Positions 1 to 64,000 of a DNA stretch of 64,000 nt are shown here, piece by piece (position 1 is the stretch's first letter; each line of letters opens with the position of its first letter). The translations under genes and the position numbers were made by a program. Below the pieces are notes generated by a model, which ran no database searches, had not been told where the DNA came from, and saw only the letters and a program-made list of their open reading frames with translations. The DNA comes from a virus (lineage: Duplodnaviria; Caudoviricetes), in IMG/VR virus record IMGVR_UViG_3300032030_000035, positions 1 through 64,000 of that record; one strand, written 5' to 3'.

Positions 1-258
1 AATGCTGGTATCTATATAACAGAAGCACAAAATACTACAATAGATATGATGAAACTTATTGTACAACGTATTGGTGAAGATAGTATTTGTGTAATTGAAG
101 GTGATGATAAAGCTCAAGTTGATATGATTACATACGGCGGTAATAACAATGGTCTTAGAAGATTATCAGAAGTCTTCAGAGGTCAAAATTATTACGGTGA
201 AGTTACTTTACAAAAATGTCATCGATCTGCTATTGCAGAGCACGCTGATTTAATGTAG
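1..258 (+). CDS. phoH: PhoH-family ATPase, C-terminal part (5' end outside window)
   Basis: Frame is open from base 1: NAGIYITEAQNTTIDMMKLIVQRIGEDSICVIEGDDKAQVD...HRSAIAE. This matches PhoH motifs (xEAQN, RIGE, GDxxQxD, RS). Confidence 0.8.
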   Translation, partial: NAGIYITEAQNTTIDMMKLIVQRIGEDSICVIEGDDKAQVDMITYGGNNNGLRRLSEVFRGQNYYGEVTLQKCHRSAIAEHADLM

Positions 259-272
259 ATAGGAGATATAAA

Positions 273-596
273 ATGGCAACTTATAATAGAAAGAGAAAAA
301 ACTATGTTACTAATGATAAAGTGATAATTAACCCTAGAAAATTTATTTATAAAGGTATAAATTTCGCCCCTGTTTTTGATCCGCAGTTCTATGCTTATAA
401 ATATCCGGAAATTGCGAAGTTATACGAAAATGATGATCTTTTGTTTAATCACTTTATTAATGTAGGTATTGCGGAAGGATACGTAGGCACCTCCGCATTC
501 GATATAAACGCTTATAAGGAAGTATATAAGTATAAAAATAAAAAAGAGTTAGATAACGATATTGATTACTATATTGCTTATCTCACTTCTAAGTAA
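273..596 (+). CDS. Hypothetical protein with a Lachnospiraceae-type cell-surface repeat
   Basis: AGGAG RBS. FDPQFYAYKYPEIA...HFINVGIAEG...FDINAY resembles a repeat I recall from Lachnospiraceae secreted hydrolases. Confidence 0.5.
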   Translation: MATYNRKRKNYVTNDKVIINPRKFIYKGINFAPVFDPQFYAYKYPEIAKLYENDDLLFNHFINVGIAEGYVGTSAFDINAYKEVYKYKNKKELDNDIDYYIAYLTSK

Positions 597-601
597 ACTC
601 T

Positions 602-636
602 ATGGGAGAATCATTATGATTCTCCCATTTTTTTTT
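602..636 (+). terminator. Rho-independent terminator
   Basis: ATGGGAGAATCA-tta-TGATTCTCCCAT, a 12-bp stem followed by a T run. Confidence 0.85.
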
Positions 637-644
637 GTTTTTAA

Positions 645-673
645 TTGATTTTTTATAAAAAATATTATATAAT
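645..673 (+). promoter_or_regulatory. Sigma-A type promoter
   Basis: TTGATT-N17-TATAAT. Confidence 0.75.
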
Positions 674-712
674 ATAAATATAGGAATAAAATATGAAAGG
701 TGTTTTTAATAA

Positions 713-1207
713 ATGGTTAAATATATATATACAGATGGTGCTTGTAGTACCAATGGAGATTGGAGTGGCGGCTATGGTGTAGTTGTTACTAATGAAGATT
801 CATCAATAATCTATCACACTGCCGCAGAATATACTGACAAAACAACCAACAATAGAGAGGAACTTAAGGCTATGATATACGCTCTTGATATCATTAACGA
901 TGATGACGAGTATATTATAGCGAGTGACTCCGCCTATGTAGTAAATACTTGCTGCAACTGGATTTGGCGGTGGTCTAAAAATGGGTGGATGAATAGTAAA
1001 AAGGTCACGGTAGAGAATATTGATTTAATCAAAATTCTATATAATTATCTTACCACAAAATTTTCTAAATGTCAAATCGTGAAAGTTTCTGGACATAATA
1101 ATGTCGTTGGAAATGAAATTGCTGATAGTTTAGCTACTAATAATATGAAGAAATTTAATGATATCGTTGAAAAAAATGGTATTAAAATAATACAAAAGGA
1201 GAATTAA
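713..1207 (+). CDS. rnhA: Ribonuclease HI
   Basis: Motifs YTDGACS, TNNREEL, SDSAYV, KVSGH, GNEIADSLA. Confidence 0.93.
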   Translation: MVKYIYTDGACSTNGDWSGGYGVVVTNEDSSIIYHTAAEYTDKTTNNREELKAMIYALDIINDDDEYIIASDSAYVVNTCCNWIWRWSKNGWMNSKKVTVENIDLIKILYNYLTTKFSKCQIVKVSGHNNVVGNEIADSLATNNMKKFNDIVEKNGIKIIQKEN

Positions 1208-1208
1208 A

Positions 1209-2116: not shown

Positions 2117-4009
2117 ATGGGAAAATTATATGACGATAATAGTATTGAATCGCTTTCCCCGAGGGACTTTACCAGACTTAGACCTGGAGTTTATGCCGGT
2201 AGTACCGAATATAGTACCCAATTACTAATTGAAATTGTCTCTAACGCTATTGATGAATATGCTGCTGGTCACGGTAATGTCATTAATGTTGATTATCAGG
2301 ATGATGGAAGTTGTAGAGTTGAAGATTTTGCTCAAGGTTTTCCTGTAAACGTAAAGAGAGATGATGGAGAAACTGTTCTTCAGGCTTCTTTTGATGTCCT
2401 TAATACTTCGGGTAAATTCTCTGATGATGGTGTATATGAAGGTACTGCATTAGGATTAAATGGTATCGGTAGTAAATTAACTAACTTTTTATCAAAGAGG
2501 TTAGTGGTAAATACTTATAGAGATGGACAGACTGAAAGAATTTGTTTTGAAGATGGTATTTTCCACAGAAGAGATTTAGGTAAACAGGGAGATGCTCACA
2601 CTGGTACTATCGTAGAATGGACACCTGACCCTCAGTTTTTTACACATCCTGGAATAGATGTCGATAGAATTAAAAAACTTTTTAATGTCTTAACCTGTTT
2701 ATGTAGAGGATTAACAATTAATCTTACTCATAATAGAAAAGATTTAATTTCATACTCTTCAAAAAATGGTCTAAATGACTTGGTTGATGATATCGTTAAG
2801 GATAACGAGATTATTAACAATAGACTTAATATAGATTATGAAGAGGGCAAAAATAAAATAGATTTTGTATTAACATATACTTCAAACTATTCTATGAATA
2901 TGATAAGTTATGTTAACACAGGAGAGACTGATAGCGGTCCGCACATTACACAGATAAAAACTATAATAACAAGAGAATTTAACAAATTCTTTAAAGATAA
3001 AGGATGGTTAAAAGAAAAGGATAGTAACCTTGAAGGTGGAGATATTCAAGAGGGTATGGTTATAGCATTTAACATAACCGCACCTGGAATTAGCTATGAT
3101 GCTCAGACTAAGAGTAGAATAGTTAAAATTGATATGACTCCTTTTACTTCTGTTATTGCGGAAAGCATACAGACTTGGCTTGCTGCAAACGAGAAAGATA
3201 TAAAGGCAATATTTGATAAATCTATTAACGCACGTAAGGCAAGAGAGGCAGCTAAGAAAGCAAGGGACGCCGCAAGAAATATTAAGCCAAAAGAAAAAGG
3301 CTTAAAGGCTAAGATGGCGTTAAGCAATAAATTTATCGACTGCGTAAATAAAGACCCTAAGAATAGAAATTTGCTATTGGTAGAGGGATTATCTGCAGGT
3401 AGTTCGGCTATTGAGGCTAGAAATGAGAAAACTGACTGTATTTATATGTTAAGAGGTAAAATTGTTTCTCCTCTTAAGACTACTGTTGATAAGATTCTCG
3501 CAAACCAGGAAATGTCTGATATTGTAAAAGTAATCGGCGGCGGTTTTGGTCAGGATTTTAATGTTAATAAAATGAATTTTGATAAAATCGTAATTACTAC
3601 AGATGCGGATTCCGATGGTGCCGATATCGAATTACTTTTAATAACTTTTTTCTTTACATATATGAGACCTCTTGTCGAAGCTGGTAAACTTTATAGGGCG
3701 GTTACACCGTTGTATATTGTTAGAACAGGTAAAGAAGAATTATACTTCTATACAGAAGAAGAAATGAGTGCATTTAAAGCAAATCATTCAGATGGTAGTT
3801 ATGATATTCTGAGAGCAAAAGGATTAGGAGAACTTAATGCGGTAGATTTGCATAAGGTATGCTTTGAAAACCAGAGATTTAAGAAAATCACTATTTCAGA
3901 TGCAAAAGAAACTCAGAAATTATTAGAGGTACTGCAGGGACAGGCGGTAGGTCCTCGTAAACAGTTTATCTATGACAATGCAGAACAGTTAGGTTTTAAC
4001 TTCGATTAA
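2117..4009 (+). CDS. gyrB: Type IIA topoisomerase B subunit (GyrB-like)
   Basis: RLRPGVYAG, EIVSNAIDE, GLNGIG (GHKL ATPase); TOPRIM motifs EGLSA, LRGK, DADSDG, KGLGE. Confidence 0.93.
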   Translation: MGKLYDDNSIESLSPRDFTRLRPGVYAGSTEYSTQLLIEIVSNAIDEYAAGHGNVINVDYQDDGSCRVEDFAQGFPVNVKRDDGETVLQASFDVLNTSGKFSDDGVYEGTALGLNGIGSKLTNFLSKRLVVNTYRDGQTERICFEDGIFHRRDLGKQGDAHTGTIVEWTPDPQFFTHPGIDVDRIKKLFNVLTCLCRGLTINLTHNRKDLISYSSKNGLNDLVDDIVKDNEIINNRLNIDYEEGKNKIDFVLTYTSNYSMNMISYVNTGETDSGPHITQIKTIITREFNKFFKDKGWLKEKDSNLEGGDIQEGMVIAFNITAPGISYDAQTKSRIVKIDMTPFTSVIAESIQTWLAANEKDIKAIFDKSINARKAREAAKKARDAARNIKPKEKGLKAKMALSNKFIDCVNKDPKNRNLLLVEGLSAGSSAIEARNEKTDCIYMLRGKIVSPLKTTVDKILANQEMSDIVKVIGGGFGQDFNVNKMNFDKIVITTDADSDGADIELLLITFFFTYMRPLVEAGKLYRAVTPLYIVRTGKEELYFYTEEEMSAFKANHSDGSYDILRAKGLGELNAVDLHKVCFENQRFKKITISDAKETQKLLEVLQGQAVGPRKQFIYDNAEQLGFNFD

Positions 4010-4016
4010 ACAATAA

Positions 4017-4050
4017 GTGAAGTCATCTTAACTGATGACTTCACATTTAT
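4017..4050 (+). terminator. Probable terminator between gyrB and gyrA
   Basis: GTGAAGTCATC-ttaact-GATGACTTCAC followed by a T-rich tail. Confidence 0.65.
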
Positions 4051-4079
4051 TTGATTTTATTCAAAATTTTTATTATAAT
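4051..4079 (+). promoter_or_regulatory. Sigma-A type promoter
   Basis: TTGATT-N17-TATAAT. Confidence 0.75.
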
Positions 4080-4111
4080 ATTATTAGATTGAAAAAAGAA
4101 AGGAAAAATTA

Positions 4112-6493
4112 ATGGATAACTTTATAACTGAAGTAGATATAATTGATGAGAGTAGAGAATCCTTTCTAACTTATAGTGCTGAAGTCTTAACTGACAGAGC
4201 GATACCAGCCGCAGAGGATGGACTGTTGTCTGCACAGAGAAAGATAATCTGGACAATGGAAGATTTTCTTAAAATGGACAACAAGAGTAAGACTAAAAAG
4301 TGTAATGCTATTGTTGGTAGCACACTTTCAACAAGTTATTTTCACGGCGATATAAGTTGTTATGGTGTACTTTGCAAAATGTCCCAGGAATATTTAATGA
4401 GATATCCCCTCATTACAGGTCAGGGTTCTCTTGGTACGCAGGAAAATAATGACATGGTTGCAAGTTCGAGATATACAGAAGCAAAGCCTTCAAAGTTTGC
4501 GGACTTGATGATGAATGATTTTAAGAAGAAAGTTGTTCCGTTAAAGGAGACTTATAATGGCGAGTATATGGAGCCGGTAGTTTTACCTTCATTGTTTCCA
4601 AATGCAATATGTAATGGTAGACAGGCTATTGGTATCTCTATGAGCCATAACTCTTTACCTCATAATTTAACTGAGGTATGTAATGGAATTATTGCTTATA
4701 TTAAAAATAATAATCTTACTATTGATGAATTAATGGAATATATCAAAGGTCCAGACTTCCCTCTGGAAAATATAATCATTAATGGTAAGGATATTAAGTC
4801 TGCTTTTATGACAGGTCATTCCGCAGTTTCTCTTAAAGTTAGAGGAAAGTATGAAATTAATAAGCAGACAATTACTTTCACAACCATTCCTTATAGAACT
4901 TATAGAAATAAGATTAAGGAACAAATTGAAAAGAATATAGATGTTTTTGATAATTTACTTGCAGATTTTAATGATGAATCAAGTTTGGGTAAAAATAAAC
5001 TTGTGTTTACTGTTAAACCTGGAGTTGAGCCTGAAAAGGTAGTTACTGAACTTTTTGCATTAACAGATTTGCAGTCATCAGTATCTTACAATATGAACTA
5101 TATTGTCAATGGTACACCGAAAATGTGTTCTATGCTTGACTTGATTAAAGCATATGTTAATCATCAGATTAATGTATTGATAGCCGCAACAGAGTATGAT
5201 AAAGATAAGGCAGAAAAAAGAGCGCATATTTTGGAAGGTCTCCTTATCGTTCTTGAAGATATTGACAAGGCAATTAAGTTAATTAGAGAATCGCTTGATT
5301 CGGCAGAAGCAAAAGTAAAGTTAATTGATGCTTTTAATCTGACAGAGGTACAGGCTAAAGCAGTTCTTGACATGAAGTTAAGTAGATTAACTAAACTCGA
5401 TAGAGATGATATCTTAAAAGAACTTAAAGATAAAAAGGCTATTATTGAAGAATGTAATAAAATTATCAATGATGAACAGTATCGTGATACTAAACTCATT
5501 GAGAAAATTGAAAAATTAAAGGAAGTCTATGGTGATGAGAGAAGGACAACTATTCTTGATATGGAACTTCCGAAAACTTCTTCAAAGAAAAGTGTACCGC
5601 CGGTAAAGAAAGACCCCGTAGATGTAGTAGTAGTTACTACTCATAGTGGTCTAATTAAGAAGATTCCGGTATCATCTTTCAGAACTCAGTCAAGAGGAGG
5701 CGTAGGAGTTAAGACACTTGATAGCGCAATTATGTCTGCAATAAAGACTAACACCGAAGATATAGTAATGTTCTTCACAAATGGCGGCAAGGTGTGCAAA
5801 CTGATTGCAGATAAGATTCCGGATGGCACAAATGCGGCAAAGGGTACTCCAGTTAGCTCTCTTATCAATCTTGATAAAGGAGATAATGTAATAGCAGTCA
5901 CATCTTTACATAATAAGTCAATACCTAAATATATCATTTTCGTAACAAAAGATGGAATGATAAAGAAATCTCTCTTATCAGATTATATGACAGGTAGCAG
6001 AGGTGGTAATCTAATTGCTATTAAGCTTAAAGAAAATGATGCTGTTAAGCAGGTAATCTTCCAGGACGAAGAAGATATTATCATTGCAACAAAGAATGGT
6101 ATGGGTCTTAGAGTTGCAACTAATGATATTACACCTGTTGGTAGAGTTGCTATGGGTATTAAAGGTATTAAGTTAGGAGAAGGTGATGAGGTAATTTCAG
6201 CATTACCTATCCATAAAGAAACTGATGATCTTGGTATCTTCTATGTAAATGGATGTGGTTATAAAAGAAAAATATCCGATATAACAGTTAGGACTAGAAA
6301 TACAAAAGGTATGACGATAGGTTCTTCTGATATAGCTGGAATTGCAATGATATCAGATGAAGATAATTTGATTATCTCTGGTGATACAAATACTATATGT
6401 ATTTCGGCAAAAGACGTACCTATATACACATCGGCGGCAGCAGGTGTTATACTAATAAAGAATAATAAAATTAAGTCTATAACAAAGATATAA
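4112..6493 (+). CDS. gyrA: DNA gyrase subunit A
   Basis: RAIP..DGL, HGD, catalytic SRYTE, GPDFP, GyrA-box QSRGGVG and C-terminal beta-pinwheel repeats. Confidence 0.92.
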   Translation: MDNFITEVDIIDESRESFLTYSAEVLTDRAIPAAEDGLLSAQRKIIWTMEDFLKMDNKSKTKKCNAIVGSTLSTSYFHGDISCYGVLCKMSQEYLMRYPLITGQGSLGTQENNDMVASSRYTEAKPSKFADLMMNDFKKKVVPLKETYNGEYMEPVVLPSLFPNAICNGRQAIGISMSHNSLPHNLTEVCNGIIAYIKNNNLTIDELMEYIKGPDFPLENIIINGKDIKSAFMTGHSAVSLKVRGKYEINKQTITFTTIPYRTYRNKIKEQIEKNIDVFDNLLADFNDESSLGKNKLVFTVKPGVEPEKVVTELFALTDLQSSVSYNMNYIVNGTPKMCSMLDLIKAYVNHQINVLIAATEYDKDKAEKRAHILEGLLIVLEDIDKAIKLIRESLDSAEAKVKLIDAFNLTEVQAKAVLDMKLSRLTKLDRDDILKELKDKKAIIEECNKIINDEQYRDTKLIEKIEKLKEVYGDERRTTILDMELPKTSSKKSVPPVKKDPVDVVVVTTHSGLIKKIPVSSFRTQSRGGVGVKTLDSAIMSAIKTNTEDIVMFFTNGGKVCKLIADKIPDGTNAAKGTPVSSLINLDKGDNVIAVTSLHNKSIPKYIIFVTKDGMIKKSLLSDYMTGSRGGNLIAIKLKENDAVKQVIFQDEEDIIIATKNGMGLRVATNDITPVGRVAMGIKGIKLGEGDEVISALPIHKETDDLGIFYVNGCGYKRKISDITVRTRNTKGMTIGSSDIAGIAMISDEDNLIISGDTNTICISAKDVPIYTSAAAGVILIKNNKIKSITKI

Positions 6494-6498: not shown

Positions 6499-6534
6499 AG
6501 ATGGCGGGGATACCTCTTCCCGCCATCTTTTTTT
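6499..6534 (+). terminator. Rho-independent terminator
   Basis: AGATGGCGGG...CCCGCCATCT followed by a T run. Confidence 0.8.
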
Positions 6535-12470: not shown

Positions 12471-12830
12471 ATGAGTAAAGAAAAGTTTATTAATGAAGTT
12501 GAGAGTTTTATTAAGCAGGGTTATGAGTTCTCCGCAGATGCTATGGAGTATTTCGAGGCGATTAAGAATGATAAGTTTGAAGCTCCAGTTGAAAAGAAAG
12601 GGCTTACACAGAAGAGCCGTGATTTGCTTATTGTTATGAGAGACAATCTGGAGCAGTTTGATAATATTTTCGCCACTAAGAAAATTAGTGAGGTTACAGG
12701 AATTCCGTCAAGATCCATTTCTGGTTCGATGCGTTCTCTTGTAACAAAAGGATATGTTGAAAAGGTTTCCGCAGAGCCTGTACTGTATGCACTTACAGAG
12801 AAGGGCAAGACTGAAACTGTGGAAGAGTAA
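12471..12830 (+). CDS. Winged-helix DNA-binding protein
   Basis: KISEVTGIPSRSISGSMRSLVTKGYVEKV...YALTEKG. Confidence 0.7.
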   Translation: MSKEKFINEVESFIKQGYEFSADAMEYFEAIKNDKFEAPVEKKGLTQKSRDLLIVMRDNLEQFDNIFATKKISEVTGIPSRSISGSMRSLVTKGYVEKVSAEPVLYALTEKGKTETVEE

Positions 12831-13950: not shown

Positions 13951-14010
13951 TTCAATAGAAAAATGAAATTGAAAATTGGTTTTGAAAAATTTTGAAAGGA
14001 TTTTTTGGAT

Positions 14011-15033
14011 ATGGCAAATTTTGATATTGATGATTTATTAAACCTGGAACCTTCTACAATTAGTAGGGATTTATCTGGATATATTACATACATATATGGA
14101 CCGCCTAAGGTTGGTAAGACCACATTAGCAAGAGATATGAAATCACTTATTATCGCTTGTGAGGATGGTACTAGGGCATTAACAGGAGCTTATGTACAAA
14201 AAGCAAAGAGTTGGGCGGATATCCGTAACCTTATGAGATTTTGTAAGGATGAAAGAGTTAAAGAGAAGTTTAAGAGTTTTGCGATTGATACTGTAGACGT
14301 TGCCGCATCTTATTGTGAGAAGTATGTCTGCAACCAGCTTGGCATTTCTACTCTCGGTGAAGGCGGATGGGCTAAGAACGGTTGGGCTACTTTTAAGAAA
14401 GAGTTTGAAGAAGTATTCCGTACTATAACAATGGAAGGCTATGCGGTTTTATTTATTAGTCATGATAAGACAGAAGAAGTAACAAGACCTGATGGTTCTA
14501 AGTATACTAGAATTGTTGCCACTGCTAGTTCGTCAGTAAATAACATCATTAAAAATATGAGTGATATCATTACATATGGATATTTTGATCCTATTACTCA
14601 GGAAAGATATATGATGCTTCGTTCATTAGACGGTATGGCGGATGTTGGTTGTCGTTTCCAGTATATTGAACCTAAGATTCTTTTCGGTTATGATAATCTT
14701 GTAAAAGCACTTAATGATGCTATCGACAAGGAAGCAAGTATAAACTCTGGTAGTGTTGTTGATAAGAAAATTGAAAAGGCTAATAAGGAACTTGATTTTG
14801 ACGAACTAATGACAGAATTTAGCAATATTATAGCTAATATTCCTGGTTCTACAGACCCTAATCAGACAACTGAAGATGGTAAAAAGTTTGTATCTTATTG
14901 GCAGCCAAGAATTGTTGAAATTACAACAAAATATCTGGGTGCAGAAAAGAAAGTATCTCAATGTACTAGAAATCAGGTTGAGCAGTTAAGCTTGATAGTA
15001 GATGAGTTAAAAGAGATAACAAAGATAAAATAA
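14011..15033 (+). CDS. AAA_24 / Sak4-like ATPase (recombinase)
   Basis: Walker A YGPPKVGKTT, Walker B AIDTVD, FISH motif. Confidence 0.8.
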   Translation: MANFDIDDLLNLEPSTISRDLSGYITYIYGPPKVGKTTLARDMKSLIIACEDGTRALTGAYVQKAKSWADIRNLMRFCKDERVKEKFKSFAIDTVDVAASYCEKYVCNQLGISTLGEGGWAKNGWATFKKEFEEVFRTITMEGYAVLFISHDKTEEVTRPDGSKYTRIVATASSSVNNIIKNMSDIITYGYFDPITQERYMMLRSLDGMADVGCRFQYIEPKILFGYDNLVKALNDAIDKEASINSGSVVDKKIEKANKELDFDELMTEFSNIIANIPGSTDPNQTTEDGKKFVSYWQPRIVEITTKYLGAEKKVSQCTRNQVEQLSLIVDELKEITKIK

Positions 15034-15135: not shown

Positions 15136-15687
15136 ATGGCTAAACATATAATTAAATGTGCCGTTTGTGGTGAATCGTTTGATACAAATGAAATTCAAGC
15201 GGTACGTTATGGCGTTCGCCGTTATGCTCACTATGACTGTTATCCGCAAGGTGAATTAGTACCAATAATAGAGAGTAAAAGAAGTAAAAAAGAAGAGACT
15301 AAAGAAACAAAAGAAAAAGACCCAGATTTAAAAGCTCTTATGGATTATATTAACCAATTATTTGGTGATAAATGTAATTGGGCAATGACTCAGAAATATA
15401 TTAAAAAGTTTAGGGAGGAAGATAATTATAGTTATTCGGGAATCCTTAAATCTTTAATATATTTTTATGAGGTTAAACATAACCCGATAGATAAGGCAAA
15501 AGGATCAATAGGAATTGTACCTTTTGTTTACCAGGATGCTTATAATTATTATTATTCTGTTTACATGGCTCAACAGAATATGCAAAATGGAACTGTTAAT
15601 AAAGATAATGTAGTTGAAAAAACTATAAAGATACCTAAATCTAAAGGTATTCTTAAAAGATTATTTAAAATAGGAGTAGATGAATAA
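15136..15687 (+). CDS. Zinc-finger replication protein (putative helicase accessory, YorH-like)
   Basis: CxxC...HxxC; GIVPFVY motif; overlaps the helicase start. Confidence 0.5.
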   Translation: MAKHIIKCAVCGESFDTNEIQAVRYGVRRYAHYDCYPQGELVPIIESKRSKKEETKETKEKDPDLKALMDYINQLFGDKCNWAMTQKYIKKFREEDNYSYSGILKSLIYFYEVKHNPIDKAKGSIGIVPFVYQDAYNYYYSVYMAQQNMQNGTVNKDNVVEKTIKIPKSKGILKRLFKIGVDE

Positions 15688-17224
15688 TATGAAATCATCA
15701 AAATATATAGATACTGCGGCGGTAGCTCAAATTATTGGCTGCATTTATAAAAATCCTAAATTACTTGATTTAACAGATAAATATCATTTTTTAGAGCAGG
15801 ACTTTCCTAATAGTTTTCTTAGAAATATATTTGGTACTATTTCGAATATATATCAATTAGGAGCTTCACAGATAACACTAAATGCTATTGAAGATTATTT
15901 AGCACAGAGACCGAAGGCAGAAGCTGAATATAAGGTAAATAAAGGTGCTGAATATATTTTAAATTGTGCAGAAAATGCGAACCCTAACACTTTTAATTAT
16001 TATTATAATAGATTAAAGAAAATGACTTTATTCAGGGGATACGAAAGTTTAGGAATGAATCTGGACTGGTTATATGACCCTGATAATATTTTAGATAGTA
16101 AAAAGAAACAACAGCAAGAAGATTTTATAGATAACACTTCTCTGGCGGAAATAGCTAATCGAATTAATGACAAAATAGAAGCTATAAAGATGCAGTATGT
16201 AGAAGAGTTGGAAGATAATGGTTGCCAAATTGGTGATGGTGTAGAAGATTTGCTTGAAAGATTAAAGCAAACTCCATCATTAGGTTATCCACTTTATGGT
16301 GATTATATCAATACTGTAACTAGAGGAGCCCGCTTCGGTAAGTTTTTCTTAAGGTCTGCCGCAACAGGTATTGGAAAATCTCGTAGTATGATAGGAGATG
16401 CTTGTTTCATTGGCTGTTCTCAGATGTATGATTTGGAACATAATAAGTGGATAACGATAGGCGCAGGTCAACCAACACTTTATATCGCAACAGAGCAAGA
16501 CCTTGAAGAATGTCAAACAATGTGTATTGCATTCCTATCTGGAGTTGATGAAGAGCATATACTTAAAGGTGAATATTATGCAGGAGAGTGGGAGAGAGTT
16601 CAGAAAGCATCTCAGTTATTAAGACAGAGTAAGATATACTTTGAGTGTATCCCAGAGTTTGACTTAAAAACTATTAAAGCTATAATCCTTAAACATATAA
16701 GAGAACATCAAACACAATATGTTTTCTTTGATTACATTCATTCTTCTGCTTCTATCTTAATGGAAGTAGATGGCAAATCTGCAGTTAGTGGATTAAAAGA
16801 ACATAATATATTGTTCTTACTCTCATCTGCTTTAAAAGATATTGCTGTTCAGAATGATATATTTATTCTTTCTTCTACACAGTTAAATGCTCAGTATACA
16901 GAAACTGAAACTCCTGATCAGAACTTACTTAGAGGTTCTAAGGCTATTGCCGATAGAATTGATGTAGGTATGATATTAATGGAAGTAACTAAAGAAGATA
17001 AAGAAAAATTGGCTCCATTTATTAAAAAGAATAATTTTACAATGCCTAATATAAAATTAAGTATCTACAAAAATAGACAGGGTAGATATAAGGGAATGTA
17101 TTTATGGATGAATGCGGATAGGAGTATTTGTAGATTTAATCCAATATTTGCTACAGACTGGAATTATGGTATTATAGAAATGGAGAATTTAAAAATTAAA
17201 GTTGAAGAAGAGGGGGCATTTTAA
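15680..17224 (+). CDS. DnaB-like replicative helicase
   Basis: Walker A ATGIGKS, ATEQ, FDYIH, STQLN, LRGSKAIADRID, KNR. Confidence 0.9.
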   Translation: MNNMKSSKYIDTAAVAQIIGCIYKNPKLLDLTDKYHFLEQDFPNSFLRNIFGTISNIYQLGASQITLNAIEDYLAQRPKAEAEYKVNKGAEYILNCAENANPNTFNYYYNRLKKMTLFRGYESLGMNLDWLYDPDNILDSKKKQQQEDFIDNTSLAEIANRINDKIEAIKMQYVEELEDNGCQIGDGVEDLLERLKQTPSLGYPLYGDYINTVTRGARFGKFFLRSAATGIGKSRSMIGDACFIGCSQMYDLEHNKWITIGAGQPTLYIATEQDLEECQTMCIAFLSGVDEEHILKGEYYAGEWERVQKASQLLRQSKIYFECIPEFDLKTIKAIILKHIREHQTQYVFFDYIHSSASILMEVDGKSAVSGLKEHNILFLLSSALKDIAVQNDIFILSSTQLNAQYTETETPDQNLLRGSKAIADRIDVGMILMEVTKEDKEKLAPFIKKNNFTMPNIKLSIYKNRQGRYKGMYLWMNADRSICRFNPIFATDWNYGIIEMENLKIKVEEEGAF

Positions 17225-17541: not shown

Positions 17542-17769
17542 ATGGATAGAAATTATGCAGTAGGTGGACTTAAATGTCTTAAAAAAAATAATCAGCTTTT
17601 TTCTGACATATATAATTTTGCAATAAAAAATATTGAATCTTGGGAAAATTTTCAAGAGACAATAAAGGTAATGCTTTCCCAATGTGAAAGAGATTCCGCA
17701 GAATATAAAACCTATAATACAGTTTTAGAAGTTATAGATTATTTTATGGAAGAAATGGATAATATTTAA
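17542..17769 (+). CDS. Hypothetical protein
   Basis: RBS present; stop overlaps the primase start. Confidence 0.6.
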   Translation: MDRNYAVGGLKCLKKNNQLFSDIYNFAIKNIESWENFQETIKVMLSQCERDSAEYKTYNTVLEVIDYFMEEMDNI

Positions 17770-18878
17770 TGGGTTATCAATACGATAAAGATAAAATTAA
17801 ACAAGAGCTAACAATAAATCAAGTAGCGGATTTTGTTGCGGAGTTAGGCGGGGAACCGATAGAGAGAAATGGTATCTTAGTTTGCAAAACTATCTGTCAT
17901 TGCGGGCAGCATCATAAACTCTACTACTACCCTAACACAAACTTGTTTAAATGTTATACTGAGTGTGGCGATACCTTTGATATCTATGACTTGGTAAAAA
18001 GAGTTAAGAGTAAAGATAACGTTAAATATAGTACAGCTAAATCTATTCATTATGTAGCCCAATATTTTGGTTATAGTCCAGATGTAGCCTTTGAAGAAGA
18101 CGAAACTGATGAAGAATTAAATAAATATTGGGCGGTATTTAATTCATACGATAGAATTAAAGATATTAATAAAGAAACTCAACAGGTAGAGTTAAAATTT
18201 TACGATGATAATGTAATAAAAAATCTTCCAAGACCAAGATTATTAAATTGGGAATCGGAGGGAATAACAAAAGAAATCTGTGATTATCACAATATTTGCT
18301 ATGACCCTAAGAATTGTGGTATAGTTATACCACATTATGATGAAAATAATAATCTTATTGGTATAAGGGAAAGAACTCTTATAACTGAAAATGCAGAGCG
18401 ATACGGGAAGTATTTGCCCGCCCGCATCAATAATGTAATGTATAATCATCCTTTGTCTTTTGCTCTATATAATTTAAATTGGAGCAAAAATAATATTAAA
18501 AAGATTAAAAAGGCTATTGTTTTTGAATCCGAGAAAAGTTGTTTGCAATATGCATCAATGTTTGGGAGAGAAAATGATATATCAGTAGCCTGTTGCGGAA
18601 GCTCGTTAATTAGTTATCAAGTAGAGTTATTAAAAAATAAAGGCGTTAACGAAATTATTGTAGGTTTTGACCATGACTTTACTGATTTAACAGAAAAGAC
18701 TGCAAAGAATATTATAAAAAAATATAAAAATATTTATTTAAAATATGGCAATTATATAACAATTAGTTTTATATGGGATAGAAATAATCTTACTCCGTAT
18801 AAAGCTTCACCTACAGATTGCGGGAAGGAGATATTTTTGACATTGTTCAAAGAAAGAGTTAATTTATATGAAAATTAG
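17769..18878 (+). CDS. DNA primase (zinc-binding + TOPRIM)
   Basis: TICH...CYTEC zinc site, IVIPH, GIRER, FESEKS, GFDHD. Confidence 0.85.
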   Translation: MGYQYDKDKIKQELTINQVADFVAELGGEPIERNGILVCKTICHCGQHHKLYYYPNTNLFKCYTECGDTFDIYDLVKRVKSKDNVKYSTAKSIHYVAQYFGYSPDVAFEEDETDEELNKYWAVFNSYDRIKDINKETQQVELKFYDDNVIKNLPRPRLLNWESEGITKEICDYHNICYDPKNCGIVIPHYDENNNLIGIRERTLITENAERYGKYLPARINNVMYNHPLSFALYNLNWSKNNIKKIKKAIVFESEKSCLQYASMFGRENDISVACCGSSLISYQVELLKNKGVNEIIVGFDHDFTDLTEKTAKNIIKKYKNIYLKYGNYITISFIWDRNNLTPYKASPTDCGKEIFLTLFKERVNLYEN

Positions 18879-20649
18879 ATGTTTAACAAAAGAAGCAAAA
18901 AGAAATCCAAAAGAACAAATATTAATTAATAGGGGAATAACTGATATCAGTTATTTAGAAAATACAGATAGTCATATCAATTCATGCACTGCTTTTAATG
19001 AAGATTTACTTAAAGCGGGAGCCAAGATGCTTTTATCACACATCGCCGCAGAAGATAAGGCTTTTATCATAGTTGATAGTGACTGCGATGGATTTACAAG
19101 TTCAGCCATTTTGATAAATTATTTGTATGAAGTTGTACCCGCATGGGTTCACTGCTTTCTTAAGTGGGGTATGCATGAGGGTAAACAACATGGTCTGAAT
19201 GACTTTGTTGATAGATTAGAGAATAGCGATTATAAGTTAATAATCTGTCCGGATTCAGCAACGAATGATATTGAAGCAATAGAAAGGCTTCATAATAAAG
19301 GCATAGATGTCTTAATACTAGACCATCACTTGTCGGATGTTCCTATGAGTCCTTATGCGGTAACTATAAATTCTCAATATGATTATCCTAATGTATTCCT
19401 ATCTGGTGCGGGAGTTGTTTACCAGTTTTGTAAATATTTGGATAAGATAAGCACTCAAAACATAGCAGATATGTTTCTTGACCTTACCGCACTTGGTAAT
19501 ATGGGTGATATGATGAGTATGACTTCTCTTGAAACAAAAGAATTAATTCTAAAAGGTTTTAAGGAGTGTAATATTAGAAATCCGTTTATTGAAGGTATGA
19601 GTAGAAAACAAGAATTTTCACTTAGTAAATCTGACTATAAGCCTTCTAACAATAATGATTTATTATTTACACCATTCGGTGCCGCATTCTTTATTGTTCC
19701 TTTTGTCAATGCTATAAACAGAAGTGGAACAATGGAAGAGAAAGAATTGATTTTTAACTCTATGTTAACTATGAAAGCATTTGAGTTAATTCCTTCTAAC
19801 AAGAGAGGGCATAAGTTAGGCGAAACTGAAAGAGTTTTAGACCAAGCGTTAAGAACTTGTACTAATGTCAAGAATAGACAAACAAGAGTACAAGATGCAG
19901 GAATGGAACTTTTGGAACAGTATATTCAAAAAGATGATATGTTGAAACATAAGGTTCTTGTTTTTAAACTTGCGGAAGGCGAGATAGACCGTAACGTAGC
20001 TGGTTTATGTGCTAATAAGATTATGGCGACATATCAAAGACCTGTATGTGTAGTTACTAAGACTAATGACGAGTATGTTGGGTCTATGCGAGGATATAAT
20101 AAAACTGGACTTGCAAGTTTTAAAGAAATTGCGGAAACTTCTTCCGCATGTAATTGGAGTAGAGGCCATGAGAATGCCGCAGGTATAAGTATTAGTAATC
20201 CAGATGCTTTTGTTAAAGATATGGATGAAAAATTAGCTAATATTGAAACTGATATAGTTTATTATGTTGACTATTGTTGGGAACAAGACGAAGTTAATGG
20301 AGATACAATATTAGCACTATCAGAAATGAATGATTATATTGGTACTGATTTTGATAGACCTCTTGTTTTTATCTCAAATATAAAAGTTGATGATAGTAAT
20401 TTAAAAGTAATGAAAGGAAATACTTTAAAGATTACTTTACCTAATGGTATTGATATTATTAAATTTGGTGGTACTGATGAAGAGATTGAACAATGGAGTA
20501 ACGGTACTATATTAAATATGGTATGTAAATGTAATAGAAATGAATGGAATTGGCAAGTAAATCCTCAACTTGAATGTGTTGATTATGAGGTTTATGAACC
20601 TTCAAATCAAAATAATGTTAATGATGTATTGAAATTATGGAATTTTTAA
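18868..20649 (+). CDS. recJ: RecJ-like ssDNA exonuclease (DHH family)
   Basis: DSDCDG, LDHH, LSGAGV, GSMRG, GHENAAG. Confidence 0.9.
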   Translation: MKIRCLTKEAKRNPKEQILINRGITDISYLENTDSHINSCTAFNEDLLKAGAKMLLSHIAAEDKAFIIVDSDCDGFTSSAILINYLYEVVPAWVHCFLKWGMHEGKQHGLNDFVDRLENSDYKLIICPDSATNDIEAIERLHNKGIDVLILDHHLSDVPMSPYAVTINSQYDYPNVFLSGAGVVYQFCKYLDKISTQNIADMFLDLTALGNMGDMMSMTSLETKELILKGFKECNIRNPFIEGMSRKQEFSLSKSDYKPSNNNDLLFTPFGAAFFIVPFVNAINRSGTMEEKELIFNSMLTMKAFELIPSNKRGHKLGETERVLDQALRTCTNVKNRQTRVQDAGMELLEQYIQKDDMLKHKVLVFKLAEGEIDRNVAGLCANKIMATYQRPVCVVTKTNDEYVGSMRGYNKTGLASFKEIAETSSACNWSRGHENAAGISISNPDAFVKDMDEKLANIETDIVYYVDYCWEQDEVNGDTILALSEMNDYIGTDFDRPLVFISNIKVDDSNLKVMKGNTLKITLPNGIDIIKFGGTDEEIEQWSNGTILNMVCKCNRNEWNWQVNPQLECVDYEVYEPSNQNNVNDVLKLWNF

Positions 20650-21524: not shown

Positions 21525-22055
21525 ATGCCTAATAATATCGGATATTTAACTGCCGCTACAGATAAAGCTTCTGATGAAACTTATACTCCGGCTTATGCAA
21601 TTTATCCATTGATTAAATATATTGATAAAAATAAAATAATATGGTGTCCTTTTGATGAAGAGGATAGTGAATATGTAAGAATATTTAGAGAAAATGGTAA
21701 TACAGTAATTGCCACTCATATTTTTAATAACCAAAATTTCTTCACTTATGAGCCTGAAAAATATGATATAATTATATCTAACCCACCTTTTAGTATTAAA
21801 GATGATATCCTTAAAAGGTTAACTGAATTAAATAAACCTTTTGCAATGTTATTACCATTGCCTACCTTACAGGGACAAAAAAGATTTAATTATTTAAAAA
21901 ATACTCAAGCCTTAATTTTTGATAAAAGAATTAATTATTTTAAGAATAAAGAAACGAAAGAAATTGTAAAAGGAGTAGCATTTGCGAGTATCTATATTTG
22001 TAAAGATTTTTTACCTAAAGATTTAATTTTTGAAGAATTGGAAATGAGAGAATAA
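21525..22055 (+). CDS. Small N6-adenine-type methyltransferase
   Basis: DETYTP, IWCPFD, NPPF motif IV. Confidence 0.75.
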   Translation: MPNNIGYLTAATDKASDETYTPAYAIYPLIKYIDKNKIIWCPFDEEDSEYVRIFRENGNTVIATHIFNNQNFFTYEPEKYDIIISNPPFSIKDDILKRLTELNKPFAMLLPLPTLQGQKRFNYLKNTQALIFDKRINYFKNKETKEIVKGVAFASIYICKDFLPKDLIFEELEMRE

Positions 22056-22056: not shown

Positions 22057-23247
22057 ATGGAATTAACAAATAAGCAAGAAGCCGGTTTGGCGGAAGTGTT
22101 AAGAAAATATCATAATCATGATAAGTATGCAGTTATCTCAGGGTATGCGGGATCGGGCAAATCGACATTGGTAAAGTTTATAATTGAAGCGTTAGATGTC
22201 GAAAAAGATAAAGTCGCATATGCTACTTTTACAGGTAAAGCCGCCGAAGTACTCCGCAAAAAAGGTAATCCTAATGCTATGACTTTATGTAAGTTGTTAT
22301 ATGAAAGTATTCCTAAAAGGGGTGGCGGTTTTTTCAGAATACCGAAAACAACACTTGAATATACCGTGATAGTGATAGACGAAGTGTCAATGGTACCCAA
22401 GACAATGATAGATATGCTGCTTAAACATAAGGCATTTTGTATTTTTCTAGGGGACCCTTGCCAGTTACCGCAAATAGATAAAAAGGAATCTCATACACTT
22501 TTGGATAAACCGGATATATTTTTGGATGAAATTATGAGACAAGCACAAGAGTCAGAGATTATTCGGTTAACAATGGATATTAGAGAGGGTAAATCCATAT
22601 CCTATCAAAAAGGTAACGAAGTAATGGTAATACCTAAATCTGAATTAGTAACAGGACATTTAACATGGGCTGATCAGATTATTTGTGCTACGAATAGAAC
22701 TCGTATAAATTTAAATAATCAGACGCGGCAACTCTTAGGTTATAAGGGATTGCCTCAAACGGGAGATCGCATGATTTGCCTCAGAAATTATTGGGAGGAT
22801 ATTAGTGATTCTGGATCGGCATCTTTAGTTAATGGAACTACAGGAATTATTCAGAATCCATTTGAGACTTGGATAGAAGCTCCACGATATATAAAAATGA
22901 AAAATCATAAAATGCCGGTTATACAAGGTTCTTTTATCGCAGATGATGGTGAAACTTATTCAGCAGTGGATATGGATAAATATATGATAGAAACGGGAGA
23001 GCCTTTCCTTGATTGGCGAGAGTCTTATGCTCTTGGGCGATTAAAGATGAAAATAGGTGATATTATTCCAAGACAATTTACATATGGCTATGTAATAACT
23101 GGGTGGAAGGCACAAGGATCTGAATGGGATAAGGTTTTAGCAATAGAAGAAAATTTTCCTTTTGATAAAGAAGAACATATAAAATTTTTATATACTATTG
23201 CCACTAGAGCTAGCAAGAAATTAGTCCTATTAAAAAACACCCAATAA
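22057..23247 (+). CDS. RecD/Dda-like SF1 helicase
   Basis: GYAGSGKS, IDEVSM, GDPCQL, RQA, KAQGSEW, YTIATRA. Confidence 0.88.
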   Translation: MELTNKQEAGLAEVLRKYHNHDKYAVISGYAGSGKSTLVKFIIEALDVEKDKVAYATFTGKAAEVLRKKGNPNAMTLCKLLYESIPKRGGGFFRIPKTTLEYTVIVIDEVSMVPKTMIDMLLKHKAFCIFLGDPCQLPQIDKKESHTLLDKPDIFLDEIMRQAQESEIIRLTMDIREGKSISYQKGNEVMVIPKSELVTGHLTWADQIICATNRTRINLNNQTRQLLGYKGLPQTGDRMICLRNYWEDISDSGSASLVNGTTGIIQNPFETWIEAPRYIKMKNHKMPVIQGSFIADDGETYSAVDMDKYMIETGEPFLDWRESYALGRLKMKIGDIIPRQFTYGYVITGWKAQGSEWDKVLAIEENFPFDKEEHIKFLYTIATRASKKLVLLKNTQ

Positions 23248-60955: not shown

Positions 60956-60959
60956 TATT

Positions 60960-61469: not shown

Positions 61470-61498
61470 AGAAGTACCTCCTTTTATTTCCTAATATA

Positions 61499-61527
61499 AT
61501 TATAACAAAATTTTTCTATTTTGTCAA
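61499..61527 (-). promoter_or_regulatory. Perfect sigma-A consensus promoter
   Basis: Reverse strand TTGACA-N17-TATAAT with TG. Confidence 0.88.
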
Positions 61528-61530
61528 GAT

Positions 61531-62805
61531 TTAAGTTACAATCTCTTTACCTCTTTGCTTATAGCCTTCTCTAGAATAATGAATACCTAATTTTAATTTA
61601 TGTTCTTCAAAAGGTGCTGTTTTTAGATAGTCTGCTAAAATTTGTCTTATACTATGAACTTGGATATCGGTACTTTGTGGATCATTTATTACAAGAAAAT
61701 CGGCAGTTTCATTAATATCGGTTAATATATTTCCTTTTCTTGTACTCTGTATTTGCATCTGTCCAAATCCACTATATCCATATATCATTTTTATTTTATT
61801 CATATAACCTATTACCGTGGGTACATTATTTGGTTTTGCGTGTATTCCTTGTGAATAAATTTTTAAAGCTTCTATTCTATCTACACCTTCCAACGACGTA
61901 ATTGGACTCATAATAGCTCTAAAAGGCACAGTATTATCTATAGTTACACTATTATTTGGTGAAGCATATTGTTTAAGAGAAAAATTTTTAGTATAAATTA
62001 ATTTTAAAGCCTTATCTACAAGTGTTGTTCCTCTTATCTCTATTTCTCCTTGCTGTCTTTGAATATCTACTTTTTGACTTTTACCGGTTAATTTACTATT
62101 ACTATTATCATTTTCTTTTTCTTTTTCTTGATCTTTAATAATTGATCCAAGAAGAATCTTTTGAAGTTCAGTTTGTCCATCTTTAGTTATAAGACCCATT
62201 AATCCTTTAAACTCATCATTAGTAACTTCGTAAGTACCATTAGCATTACCACCTTTTATACCTGCTAACACAGTACCAGTCATAAAATTATTTTTAGAAA
62301 ATTTATAATTTGTAGAAATTTCCCTCTCACCCATTTTTATAACTTTTTGATTTTGAATTGCTAAATTTAAAGATTTTGCTATAACTTGAGCAAAACCTTC
62401 CTCAAACAAGAATCCTCCCACTCCTTTAGCTTCTCCTGGTTGACGGAGATGATAAAAGAAATCTGGCTTAATAGCTGAATTTTGCCCTATCTCTTCAATT
62501 AAATTTGAATAAAATTTATCTTCTAATAATGTTTTAAAATACTTTCCTCCTTTAGCATCATTAAAATAACTTTGAGGAGACCATAGCTTAAAATTTTTCT
62601 TTCTATCCGCCATTCTTAATTTTATTCCATAAAAAAAATCTTCAAGTAATTTAGCATCTTCAATATCTTGTTCTAATTTAATTTTTCCTTGATATTTTTT
62701 CCAAATAGCATCATGTAAGTTTTTATACACCTGATTTGAATGTATTCGGTCATTTTCATTTGTAGGATGCCATCTGTAATATTGCCCTTCCCAATATGAA
62801 TGCAT
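61531..62805 (-). CDS. Hypothetical protein, possible PD-(D/E)XK nuclease fold
   Basis: GFLFEE ... QKVDI ... FSLKQY spacing. Confidence 0.45.
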   Translation of the reverse strand: MHSYWEGQYYRWHPTNENDRIHSNQVYKNLHDAIWKKYQGKIKLEQDIEDAKLLEDFFYGIKLRMADRKKNFKLWSPQSYFNDAKGGKYFKTLLEDKFYSNLIEEIGQNSAIKPDFFYHLRQPGEAKGVGGFLFEEGFAQVIAKSLNLAIQNQKVIKMGEREISTNYKFSKNNFMTGTVLAGIKGGNANGTYEVTNDEFKGLMGLITKDGQTELQKILLGSIIKDQEKEKENDNSNSKLTGKSQKVDIQRQQGEIEIRGTTLVDKALKLIYTKNFSLKQYASPNNSVTIDNTVPFRAIMSPITSLEGVDRIEALKIYSQGIHAKPNNVPTVIGYMNKIKMIYGYSGFGQMQIQSTRKGNILTDINETADFLVINDPQSTDIQVHSIRQILADYLKTAPFEEHKLKLGIHYSREGYKQRGKEIVT

Positions 62806-62835
62806 TAATTACACCCCTTCCCGCAAGTTTTATGT

Positions 62836-62872
62836 AAAAAAAAATAAGGGGTTCATAAAGAACCCCTTATTT
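62836..62872 (-). terminator. Terminator after the major tail gene
   Basis: AAATAAGGGGTTC / GAACCCCTTATTT stem with a T run on the - strand. Confidence 0.85.
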
Positions 62873-62887
62873 ATAATCTTAATCAGA

Positions 62888-64000
62888 TTAAGCAAGTGTA
62901 ATTGACTTACTATCTGTAGCAGTACCAAGAGTAGCTGTAACTGTAACTTCATCACCTGATGAAAGAGCATTAACATTAACTGAGAATGTGTTACCAGCAA
63001 GCATCTCAACATCGAGATTTGTAGAATCAGAAACTGCAGTAATTGTAGGTGTATCAGTAGAACCTGTTACTGTATAAGAACCTGTTACAACGCCTGTACC
63101 TGCTGTAAGCTCACGAAGAGTAACTGTAGGAGTAACTACAGGCTCACTAGAGTGAGTATCAGCATCAATATGAGTATGGAACTCTGTATCGTTGATATCA
63201 CCACCTGTAACAATCTGGATATCACAAACTGTCTTCTTACTTCTGTCGAACATTGTGTAAGCAGGCATAGCATCCATTACGAAGTCGAAAGTAGAAGGAT
63301 CACCAGATGCAGCCATTGTGAATGTAAATGCTGACTGTACCTTTACTTTAGGGAAGATAATTGATGCAGCAAGATCCTTACCTGTAGCTTCATCTCTGAA
63401 AAGTGTATCTGCTTCAACGTAGAAGAATCCACCAAATGAACTAGGAAGAATGTTAATTGTCTGTACGCCTTCCTTAAATGCGATATAGAAATCTACCTTA
63501 GCAGAAAAGCCTGCTGTTGTATTTGCTATTGTGAACTCTAAAGGATTAGCAGCTGTGATTTCAAGCAGATAATCTTCATCACCAGCAGCACCTGTTACAG
63601 TAATATCGCTATCTTCAATGTAATCTGTAACTGAACCTGAAGAGTTTGTCTTCATACCGAACATCGGTATATCAGAGCAGTAGTAAAGTGTTGTAGCTGT
63701 AAGACCAAGTTCACTATTTAATTCATCAAGAGTAATTTTACCCTTGCCAGAGTTATCAATATTTACATCATAAGATACATGAATATGTGCAATCTTAGAA
63801 GGTGTAGCATCAATAAGACCTGCACCAGAAAGAACTGCCATACCCATAGGACTCATAAGAGCATCAGTAACAGTGAAAGTCATTGTTTTTTCACCTTCCC
63901 AAGAGATGAGACGGTTATAACCACGACCACCCTGTGCATAAACTACTGTTGTAGCCTGCTCCATATTAGAAGTTGTAGCTGTATCTATGACAAAAACGGG
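62888..64000 (-). CDS. Major tail (tube) protein with C-terminal Ig-like domain (5' end outside window)
   Basis: Frame is open to 64000; YAQGGRG, TF.VTDAL, FTFTMA.SGDPSTF.F; high-expression codon bias; Thr/Val-rich C-terminal domain. Confidence 0.75.
   Translation of the reverse strand, partial: PVFVIDTATTSNMEQATTVVYAQGGRGYNRLISWEGEKTMTFTVTDALMSPMGMAVLSGAGLIDATPSKIAHIHVSYDVNIDNSGKGKITLDELNSELGLTATTLYYCSDIPMFGMKTNSSGSVTDYIEDSDITVTGAAGDEDYLLEITAANPLEFTIANTTAGFSAKVDFYIAFKEGVQTINILPSSFGGFFYVEADTLFRDEATGKDLAASIIFPKVKVQSAFTFTMAASGDPSTFDFVMDAMPAYTMFDRSKKTVCDIQIVTGGDINDTEFHTHIDADTHSSEPVVTPTVTLRELTAGTGVVTGSYTVTGSTDTPTITAVSDSTNLDVEMLAGNTFSVNVNALSSGDEVTVTATLGTATDSKSITLA

Follow-up and report, generated by a model that had tools for sequence, protein, structure and literature searches.

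A short GC-rich word enriched across a clade of large gut phages and its possible reading by phage-encoded DNA machinery

Chi, KOPS and the uptake sequences are all dense short words, and each of them led to the DNA machine that reads it. Chi is AGCGG in B. subtilis and GAAGCGG in S. aureus; polar architecture words (KOPS/SRS and uptake sequences) are 8-12 nt long, show strong strand polarity and are common to the host. Short words are also read by primases, the sites of the T7 gp4 primase being 5'-(G/T)GGTC-3' and GTGTC with a cryptic 3' base, and by restriction enzymes, such as those of the AciI type with the site CCGC; restriction targets are avoided by phages. VSP repair is said, after work of Bhagwat and McClelland in 1992, to inflate CCWGG-related words in E. 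coli. Among lambdoid phages, the Chi-rich genomes are those without a recombination module of their own (PMC12315714).

The stretch of phage DNA analysed here (the window, 64,000 nt; Table 1) resembles Chi and the Chi-rich lambdoids (PMC12315714) in that a short word with a GCGG core is dense genome-wide and density seems to count over exact position. It differs from Chi in that the Firmicute AGCGG is not enriched, no polarity is seen and the candidate hosts show no enrichment, and from the Chi-rich lambdoids, which lack recombination genes (PMC12315714), in that this phage has its own. The likeness to T7 gp4 sites lies in a GC-rich template word of 4-5 nt with a partly free flank base, a phage-encoded primase and a density on the order of one site per few hundred bases per strand; unlike in T7, whose own sites are not enriched, both orientations are raised about 3-fold here, and the primase is so far a candidate reader. 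With VSP-driven words the present one has in common that it is over-represented genome-wide, whatever the frame or strand, and that a CpG-type cytosine is protected from transition; it differs in that five clade genomes yielded neither a Vsr nor a C5 methyltransferase, that CTGC and CCAC, its neighbours by transition, show no depletion, and that the trait belongs to a phage rather than to a host such as E. coli. The AciI site has the same 4-bp core, but here the word is enriched rather than avoided. Compared with the polar architecture words, it is short (5 nt), without polarity and not enriched in the hosts. In the literature on phage, Chi or primase, we found no description of a CCGC/TGCGG word.

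Table 1. Features of the window that bear on the enriched word
Feature	Position	Strand	Basis
Word enrichment KGCGG/CCGCM, 319 core sites	1..64000	both orientations	k-mer counts
Phage gyrase, GyrB + GyrA	2117..6493	+	
Terminator-like hairpin after gyrA, GCGG and CCGC in its two arms	6499..6530	+	
Winged-helix DNA-binding protein, replication module, candidate binder	12471..12830	+	Pfam TrmB/HTH_27
Sak4-like annealing protein, phage recombination module	14005..15033	+	Pfam AAA_24, E 2e-33
DnaB-like replicative helicase	15680..17224	+	Pfam DnaB_C, E 4e-15
DNA primase, YorJ-like, candidate word reader (template 5'-CCGC(M)-3')	17769..18878	+	PHROG phrog_47, E 5e-39
RecJ-like exonuclease	18868..20649	+	Pfam DHH/DHHA1/RecJ_OB
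Small amino-methyltransferase-like ORF	21525..22055	+	phrog_799
RecD-like SF1 helicase	22057..23247	+	Pfam AAA_30/UvrD_C_2
DNA polymerase III alpha (YorL-like)	27994..31941	+	Pfam DNA_pol3_alpha/PHP
RuvC-like resolvase	39294..39815	+	Pfam RuvC, E 2e-6
Virion structural gene (probable major tail), zero sites	62888..64000	-	

An enriched word at the level of DNA

The core CCGC/GCGG occurs 319 times in the window (GCGG 163, CCGC 156), compared with 87 copies expected from base composition and 80 under a first-order Markov model, against which it ranks first of the 136 4-mer words of the window (z 26.8); against a maximal-order model, with 156 copies expected, it keeps the first rank (z 13). The density is about 5.0 sites per kb, compared with 1.25-1.36 per kb expected by composition. 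A previous, sequence-only reading of this DNA had noted the window-wide over-representation, which turns out to be stronger than it stated; its local counts (14 in positions 1-3000 and 10 in 59900-60420) are exact, its expectation of roughly 1 per kb is about right, and the k-mer comparison it proposed places the word on top of the 4-mers under both Markov orders. Its impression that the sites are mostly TGCGG/CCGCA can now be sharpened, in that the enriched word is the 5-mer KGCGG/CCGCM (3.3x), with TGCGG and GGCGG each at 2.9x, and with AGCGG/CCGCT (0.94x in this genome, 0.98x in a 165-kb relative, G001) and CGCGG lacking enrichment. The base 3' of CCGC is A or C, in relatives also G, with T excluded; this flank rule is valid for both orientations, and words longer than 5 nt gain nothing (maximal-order Markov z ~0).

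The excess survives a per-gene synonymous shuffle, by which the sequence-only reading had proposed that it might be undone: the genes of the window hold 313 sites, compared with 131.5±7.9 in 100 shuffles (maximum 147), and genome-wide the coding strand carries 280 GCGG vs 137 expected (z 17) and 172 CCGC vs 69 (z 14.7). As that reading held, most of the sites arise from synonymous choices, and these depend on context: the Ala codon GCG accounts for 24% when G follows vs 7% otherwise, the Pro codon CCG for 32% when C follows vs 10-12% otherwise, and the use of NCC codons is higher ahead of GC. The preference extends to all positions of the word: in every frame, the matching base is favoured wherever a synonymous choice is available. 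Enrichment is found in each of the three codon frames and both orientations as well as in non-coding DNA (41 sites vs 16.8 expected). The enrichment acts at the DNA level, independently of codon frame and strand.

The enrichment factor is uniform (about 2.4-2.5x) across replication and structural genes and weaker in the early-gene region (1.4-1.6x in this genome and in the 165-kb relative). No polarity beyond the coding-strand effect was found, the two orientations being enriched equally in the phage. The intervals between sites are close to Poisson, with no sign of even placement or of long gaps being avoided, and the largest gap is as expected. The sequence-only reading was right that the 1.1-kb probable major tail gene is free of sites, but only 0.7 sites are expected there because few GC-rich codons are used. 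A palindromic site GCGG-N3-CCGC was rejected, since the distance-7 peak of the pooled loci is due to runs of Ala-rich codons and to a single relative (G003) and is missing in this genome and in the 165-kb relative. GCTG/CAGC is depleted, which fits a separate avoidance of GCWGC; this depletion was rejected as the source of the enrichment, given that the word differences between the two genomes are transitions (CTGC, CCAC) and not GCTG. GATC, GGCC and CTAG are avoided in this phage.

Because GCGG and CCGC are complementary, the pair might have been enriched so that local stems form in mRNA or single-stranded DNA and serve stability or termination. The word does lie in both arms of terminator-like hairpins, and GCGG..CCGC exceeds CCGC..GCGG 4.5-fold at 4-10 nt and about 2-fold up to 40 nt. 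Of the four hairpins that the sequence-only reading listed as closed or capped by the motif, those at 6499 and 24686 have it in both stem arms and the one at 44092 in the loop, whereas at 31942 it is merely adjacent. However, stems of at least 7 bp hold just 10 of the 88 close pairs, fewer than 20% of sites are in close pairs at all, and AGCGG/CCGCT, which pairs equally well, is not enriched; moreover, CGGC/GCCG and CCCG/CGGG reach z values of 4-6 and GGGC/GCCC of 0.1-1.5, compared with 15-17 for the word. We therefore regard a structural role as highly improbable.

Persistence of the word across the clade

With DNA polymerase III alpha as the marker, we collected 45 related loci (23 IMG/VR relatives and 22 MAG-binned phage loci, with polymerases 49-95% identical) from a clade of large uncultured phages (100-165 kb) of sheep, cattle and rabbit guts. 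The word ranks first or second in 43 of these loci, with CCGC first in all 23 IMG/VR relatives and first or second in 20 of the 22 MAG-binned loci, and its density is kept at about 2-8 per kb across the clade. SPbeta (0.88x) and Enterococcus phage H1 (0.97x) show no enrichment despite the common Sak4-DnaB-primase-RecJ-PolIII module. In terms of polymerase identity, the limit of the trait falls between 40% and 49%. The relatives of the lysin among viral contigs are only 37-39% identical, and their CCGC stands at 1.3-1.7x.

Site positions turn over between relatives while density is kept: in the polymerase gene, at 64-73% amino acid identity, 1-4 of 14 sites are common, yet 11-28 sites per gene persist. 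We infer that what counts is how many sites a given length of DNA carries. At closer range, between this genome and the 165-kb relative (93% identical), conservation of the word reaches 83.7% (rank 6 of 134), compared with 58-75% for other CG-containing and G/C-only words. For four-fold third positions occupied by G or C, conservation is 88.4% within the word and 69.4% elsewhere (p=1e-14). Word sites are thus protected from the fast G/C-to-A/T decay of other synonymous sites.

Could such protection be a by-product of the phage enzymes rather than of any function? A context-dependent mutation bias, or a bias of mismatch repair or gene conversion, might slow the loss of CCGCM or favour conversion to it. 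The uniform multiplicative factor (about 2.4x) in replication and structural genes alike and the near-Poisson spacing without a coverage pattern are compatible with this scenario; the enrichment ratio drops from 5.2x to 1.5x with rising chance density (log-log slope 0.53), as predicted by a constant bias, and the differences at the word between the two genomes are nearly all CpG transitions, CTGC and CCAC. Furthermore, the phage uses its own polymerase for replication and carries many recombination genes. On the other hand, a single-site mutational context would not favour all word positions in all frames; the early region, part of the same molecule, is only weakly enriched; and SPbeta and H1, with homologous enzymes, are not enriched at all. 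In five clade genomes (G000-G004), we found no match to PF00145 (C5), PF01555 (N4/N6) or the Vsr family; moreover, the small methyltransferase-like ORF is missing in the 165-kb relative (an alignment gap), where the enrichment is kept, so this ORF is not needed for the trait. A methyltransferase or repair explanation was rejected on these grounds, and the enrichment of the word together with the missing PF00145 and PF01555 matches does not fit restriction-modification either. In the broader form, a mutational or conversion bias has a modest chance of being the answer.

Candidate hosts and the comparison with Chi

The sequence-only reading had proposed host Chi-like sites of the AGCGG/GAAGCGG type and, alternatively, a binding or modification site of a phage protein. 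The former did not withstand examination: AGCGG is at 0.94x here (0.98x in the 165-kb relative), and the window has a single GAAGCGG on each strand, so that the enriched sequence is not a known Firmicute Chi. Hosts were assigned by MAG binning only, and about 1 Mb of bacterial contigs was surveyed from seven MAGs with clade phages and four more genomes of the GTDB family common to two of these MAGs. Mis-binning often places clade phages in MAGs that bear labels such as Methanobrevibacter or Prevotella. A lysin-based host search of genome contigs returned no relative, and Atlas gave only generic Hydrolase_2 clusters.

In these binning-inferred hosts, KGCGG is at about 1x, neither enriched nor strand-skewed and without a coding-strand excess, contrary to the polarised enrichment expected of a host Chi. 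The host-family contigs have TGCGG at 0.96x, CCGCA at 0.65x, GGCGG at 1.12x and CCGCC at 0.90x, and the only NGCGG variant enriched on their coding strand is AGCGG itself (1.48x; 72 vs 48.7, z 3.5). The core-site density is about 5 per kb in the phage vs 0.2-0.9 per kb (mean about 0.5) in the candidate hosts.

A host AddAB/RexAB that reads KGCGG might nevertheless attenuate the degradation of ends, feed recombination-dependent replication and limit the acquisition of CRISPR spacers or Argonaute guides. The GCGG core is common to the word and to the Chi of B. subtilis and S. aureus, selection on density with positional turnover in both orientations would suit the protection of randomly placed ends, and a diverged AddB-like ORF is present in 44 of the 61 genomes of the candidate host family, although AddB was not found in the incomplete MAGs G007, G169, G006 and G171. 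Chi-rich phages are indeed known, but in lambdoids Chi abundance goes with the lack of a Rec module (PMC12315714), whereas genes for Sak4, RecJ, a RecD-like helicase and RuvC are present here. The host-Chi reading of the word is poorly supported and, we believe, distinctly unlikely, although a host enzyme might read KGCGG given that the host is known from binning only. The alternative of a phage-protein site agrees with the evidence, the word being clade-specific, absent from hosts, acting at the DNA level and under selection.

Possible readers of the word

The interpretation that we favour, tentatively and from sequence comparison, is that KGCGG/CCGCM is a lineage-specific functional word that is kept by weak purifying selection and is read by the DNA machinery of the phage clade rather than of the host. 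That this machinery is phage-encoded is our inference, and any mechanism is a proposal. The fall of the enrichment ratio as chance density rises is in line with this interpretation too. The phage has a primase, a helicase and a polymerase of its own, the primase region being syntenic with yorG-yorL of SPbeta. It also carries gyrase genes as other DNA machinery; no test ties gyrase to the word. A Pfam search of the 67 kb unique to the 165-kb relative revealed RNA-repair, NAD-salvage, reverse-transcriptase and glycosyltransferase genes and no DNA-sequence reader.

The leading concrete model, a possibility to be entertained with caution, would make the word the start site of the phage primase. 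A template 5'-CCGC-3' with its 3' flank base would yield a pppGCGG primer; in DNA of 30% GC, such a GC-rich start site would be too rare by chance, and its density would be raised; and both strands would be enriched because each may serve as lagging template in recombination-dependent replication. On the coding strand, predicted to be the lagging template provided that genes are co-oriented with forks, CCGCM (2.3-4.7x) is higher than KGCGG (1.6-3.0x) in all four modules. The enriched density, about 2 per kb per strand, can be set beside the roughly 4 primase sites per kb per strand that T7 has by chance at 48% GC; the T7 genome itself shows no enrichment of its known primase words, so an enrichment of primase sites would be without precedent. 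Several observations argue against the favoured interpretation, the primase model included: SPbeta and H1 have homologous primases yet no enriched word, the asymmetry is smaller than a strictly strand-specific reader would predict, the early region is also replicated yet reaches only 1.4-1.6x, and a constant mutation or repair bias would equally produce the GC-dependent drop of the ratio and the uniform factor of about 2.5x.

Next after the primase comes a slimmer possibility, that the word is the site of a phage DNA-binding or DNA-modifying enzyme that would mark phage DNA. An unlikely, more elaborate scenario turns the logic of Chi around and treats the word as a phage "self" mark: a phage enzyme would exploit the approximately ten-fold density contrast to spare or process phage DNA, with host DNA degraded or ignored. 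The reader might then be a modifying enzyme with site specificity, or else a helicase-nuclease to which the RecD-like, RecJ or phosphoesterase genes contribute.

In this clade the word bears a clear signature of selection, and the likely hosts have nothing comparable; a core resembling that of Chi is by itself insufficient for calling a Chi mimic. If a phage protein does read the word, it would provide a handle on a new sequence-specific activity, in priming, marking or protection, that belongs to phages of reduced-genome gut Bacilli, and a simple sequence signature by which members of the clade may be recognised in metagenomes.

The enriched word and its flanking base

The window contains CCGC/GCGG 319 times, against 87 occurrences expected from base composition and 80 under a first-order Markov null (z 26.8), and the word is the top-ranking 4-mer under the first-order and maximal-order Markov nulls alike. 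Thus, the over-representation noticed in the sequence-only reading is borne out, and the local site counts given there are exact. The per-gene synonymous-codon shuffle, designated beforehand as the refuting test, left the excess in place: the window genes contain 313 sites, against 131.5±7.9 in the shuffles, and on the coding strand of the whole contig both orientations lie far beyond them (z 17 and 14.7; each null comprised 100-300 shuffles and accordingly yields z-scores, not exact probabilities). The enrichment arises from particular codon contexts, with GCG accounting for 24% of Ala codons before G and 7% elsewhere, and CCG for 32% of Pro codons before C; no G|G effect of the Ala kind was found in Val and Thr codons.

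Under the codon-preserving null, TGCGG/CCGCA and GGCGG/CCGCC each reach 2.9 times the expected number, CGCGG 1.2 times and AGCGG/CCGCT 0.94 times. This flank rule, KGCGG/CCGCM (K, T or G; M, A or C), is valid for each orientation taken separately on the coding strand. The word is enriched in all three codon frames (1.8- to 3.1-fold) and in non-coding DNA (41 sites vs 16.8 expected), and extension past 5 nt adds no enrichment; together with the presence of both orientations, these findings imply a word of the DNA itself rather than a codon or mRNA effect. Given that CGCGG is also enriched in more distant relatives, the form shared by the clade is GCGG preceded by any base except A; the contig phage separately avoids CGCG/GCGC.

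Several palindromes are strongly avoided in the whole contig under the same null (GATC, 81 vs 235; GGCC, 6 vs 57; CTAG, 72 vs 139; GCWGC, 84 vs 131; AGTACT, 4 vs 25; CAATTG, 8 vs 37), a pattern that resembles restriction avoidance. Internal AGGAGG is avoided as well (13 vs 37). The early small-gene region past the window (contig 77700-101609) is a distinct word regime, in which KGCGG reaches just 1.6-fold, CGCG/GCGC is not avoided (0.99-fold vs 0.5-fold elsewhere), CTAG is wholly missing (0 vs 17), and the avoidance of GATC and GGCC is as in the rest of the contig.

A trait of the phage clade

A sheep gut metagenome yielded the 101.6-kb contig (32.8% GC, judged about 66% complete) whose first 64 kb form the window; a complete 165-kb relative, G001, 93% identical, spans the entire contig and an extra 67 kb.

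Features of the window
Feature	Position	Strand	Remark
RNase H, GyrB/GyrA, cell-wall hydrolase, NAD ligase
Sak4, DnaB-like helicase, primase, RecJ, PolIII alpha			SPbeta-like replication block
RecD-like helicase, NrdD, dUTPase, RuvC
Tail genes, including 2872-aa tape measure		minus
GIY-YIG and HNH homing-endonuclease-like genes	9814-10770 and 23361-24344		inserted in replication region
Phage ADP-ribosylglycohydrolase	20663-21460		inside replication block
Amino-methyltransferase-like ORF, 176 aa	21525-22055		absent from G001
GCGG..CCGC arrangement, examples	29854, 56027, 60035

Phages of Fusobacterium, Thermus and Campylobacter provide the closest DNA matches of the methyltransferase-like ORF, and the ADP-ribosylglycohydrolase may oppose ADP-ribosylating defence systems. 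A segment of G001 missing from the contig (80-126 kb; L083-L085) encodes an RlaP-like nucleotidyltransferase, an RNA ligase, NadR-like and PnuC proteins, two GT2 glycosyltransferases, and a reverse transcriptase close to a laminin-G protein, possibly a diversity-generating retroelement.

The enrichment is a trait of the phage clade, not of habitat, replication module or host. CCGC is the top-ranked of 136 words in every one of the 23 IMG/VR relatives (polymerase 63-95% identical; 2.8- to 4.9-fold), and is first or second in 20 of the 22 clade contigs within MAG bins, including members just 49-56% identical. SPbeta (0.88-fold) and Enterococcus phage H1 (0.97-fold), which share the Sak4-helicase-primase-RecJ-polymerase block with about 40% identity, show no enrichment. 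Across 43 loci the ratio drops from 5.2-fold at 26% GC to 1.5-fold at 37-45% GC (log-log slope 0.53); site density is buffered, a pattern that a constant selection or bias coefficient likewise predicts. The binned clade contigs, of 100-140 kb (L026-L047), lie in MAGs labelled Bacilli, Clostridia, Endomicrobiaceae, Methanobrevibacter, Prevotella and Gastranaerophilales, probably binned through composition or coverage, and several bins contain two distinct clade phages.

Individual sites turn over. In the polymerase gene, only 1-4 of the 14 sites recur at the same place in relatives with 64-73% identity, each of which retains 11-28 sites. Comparing the contig with G001 gives a conservation of 83.7% for the word (rank 6 of 134) and of 58-75% for other CG-containing or G/C-only words; four-fold degenerate G/C is 88.4% conserved inside the word vs 69.4% outside (p=1e-14). 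This combination of short-range protection and positional turnover is a signature of selection. The factor is about 2.4-fold in nearly all replication and structural genes of at least 600 nt and only 1.4- to 1.6-fold in the cassette-like early region; spacing is near Poisson, and orientation tracks the coding strand and nothing else. In the pooled clade loci, GCGG..CCGC is 4.5 times commoner than CCGC..GCGG at 4-10 nt, about twice as common out to 40 nt and 1.4 times to 160 nt; stems of at least 7 bp contain only some 10 of the 88 close pairs.

What could read the word

Could the word simply reflect mutation or repair bias? Such a bias would account for the uniform enrichment factor. However, it does not readily account for the preference seen at each position of the word whatever the frame, for the weaker enrichment of the early region, or for SPbeta and H1 not having the trait, and a search of five clade genomes for Vsr or a cytosine methyltransferase found none; we consider this explanation unlikely.

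The proposal that the word is a Chi-like site of the host AddAB fares worse. The candidate host family, inferred from MAG binning, comprises Bacilli of 0.7-1.5 Mb and 25-29% GC: two phage-holding MAGs (rabbit; cattle rumen) belong to this single GTDB family, and a third genome there also holds a clade contig. The word is near 1-fold in bacterial contigs of seven clade-phage-holding MAGs, and KGCGG and CCGCM are at 0.65- to 1.12-fold in 400 kb from four more genomes of the family; the candidate hosts show neither enrichment nor skew of the word. The exact Firmicute Chi, AGCGG, is the one variant not enriched in the phage. On the host-family coding strand, taken as roughly the leading strand, AGCGG is the sole raised NGCGG variant (72 vs 48.7, z 3.5; L111-L130) and its complement is not raised, as expected for a B. 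subtilis-type Chi. Furthermore, the phage encodes its own recombination genes, unlike the Chi-rich lambdoid phages, which are those without such genes (PMC12315714). Because many host-family genomes contain a diverged AddB-like gene and the host link is indirect, we retain a host Chi signal as a decidedly improbable explanation.

The reading that we tentatively favour, short of even confidence, is that DNA machinery encoded by the clade reads the word, whose density is under selection. Within this reading, a primase start site, a role without precedent for such a word, would match its anatomy best, ahead of the next option, a binding or modification mark of "self", given the GC-rich site in AT-rich DNA and the phage-encoded replisome. 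The candidate site would consist of four fixed bases and a partly free 3' template base. The consistently greater enrichment of CCGCM than of KGCGG on the coding strand would agree with this sub-model, under which the resulting density of the word would lie within two-fold of the chance density of primase sites in T7.
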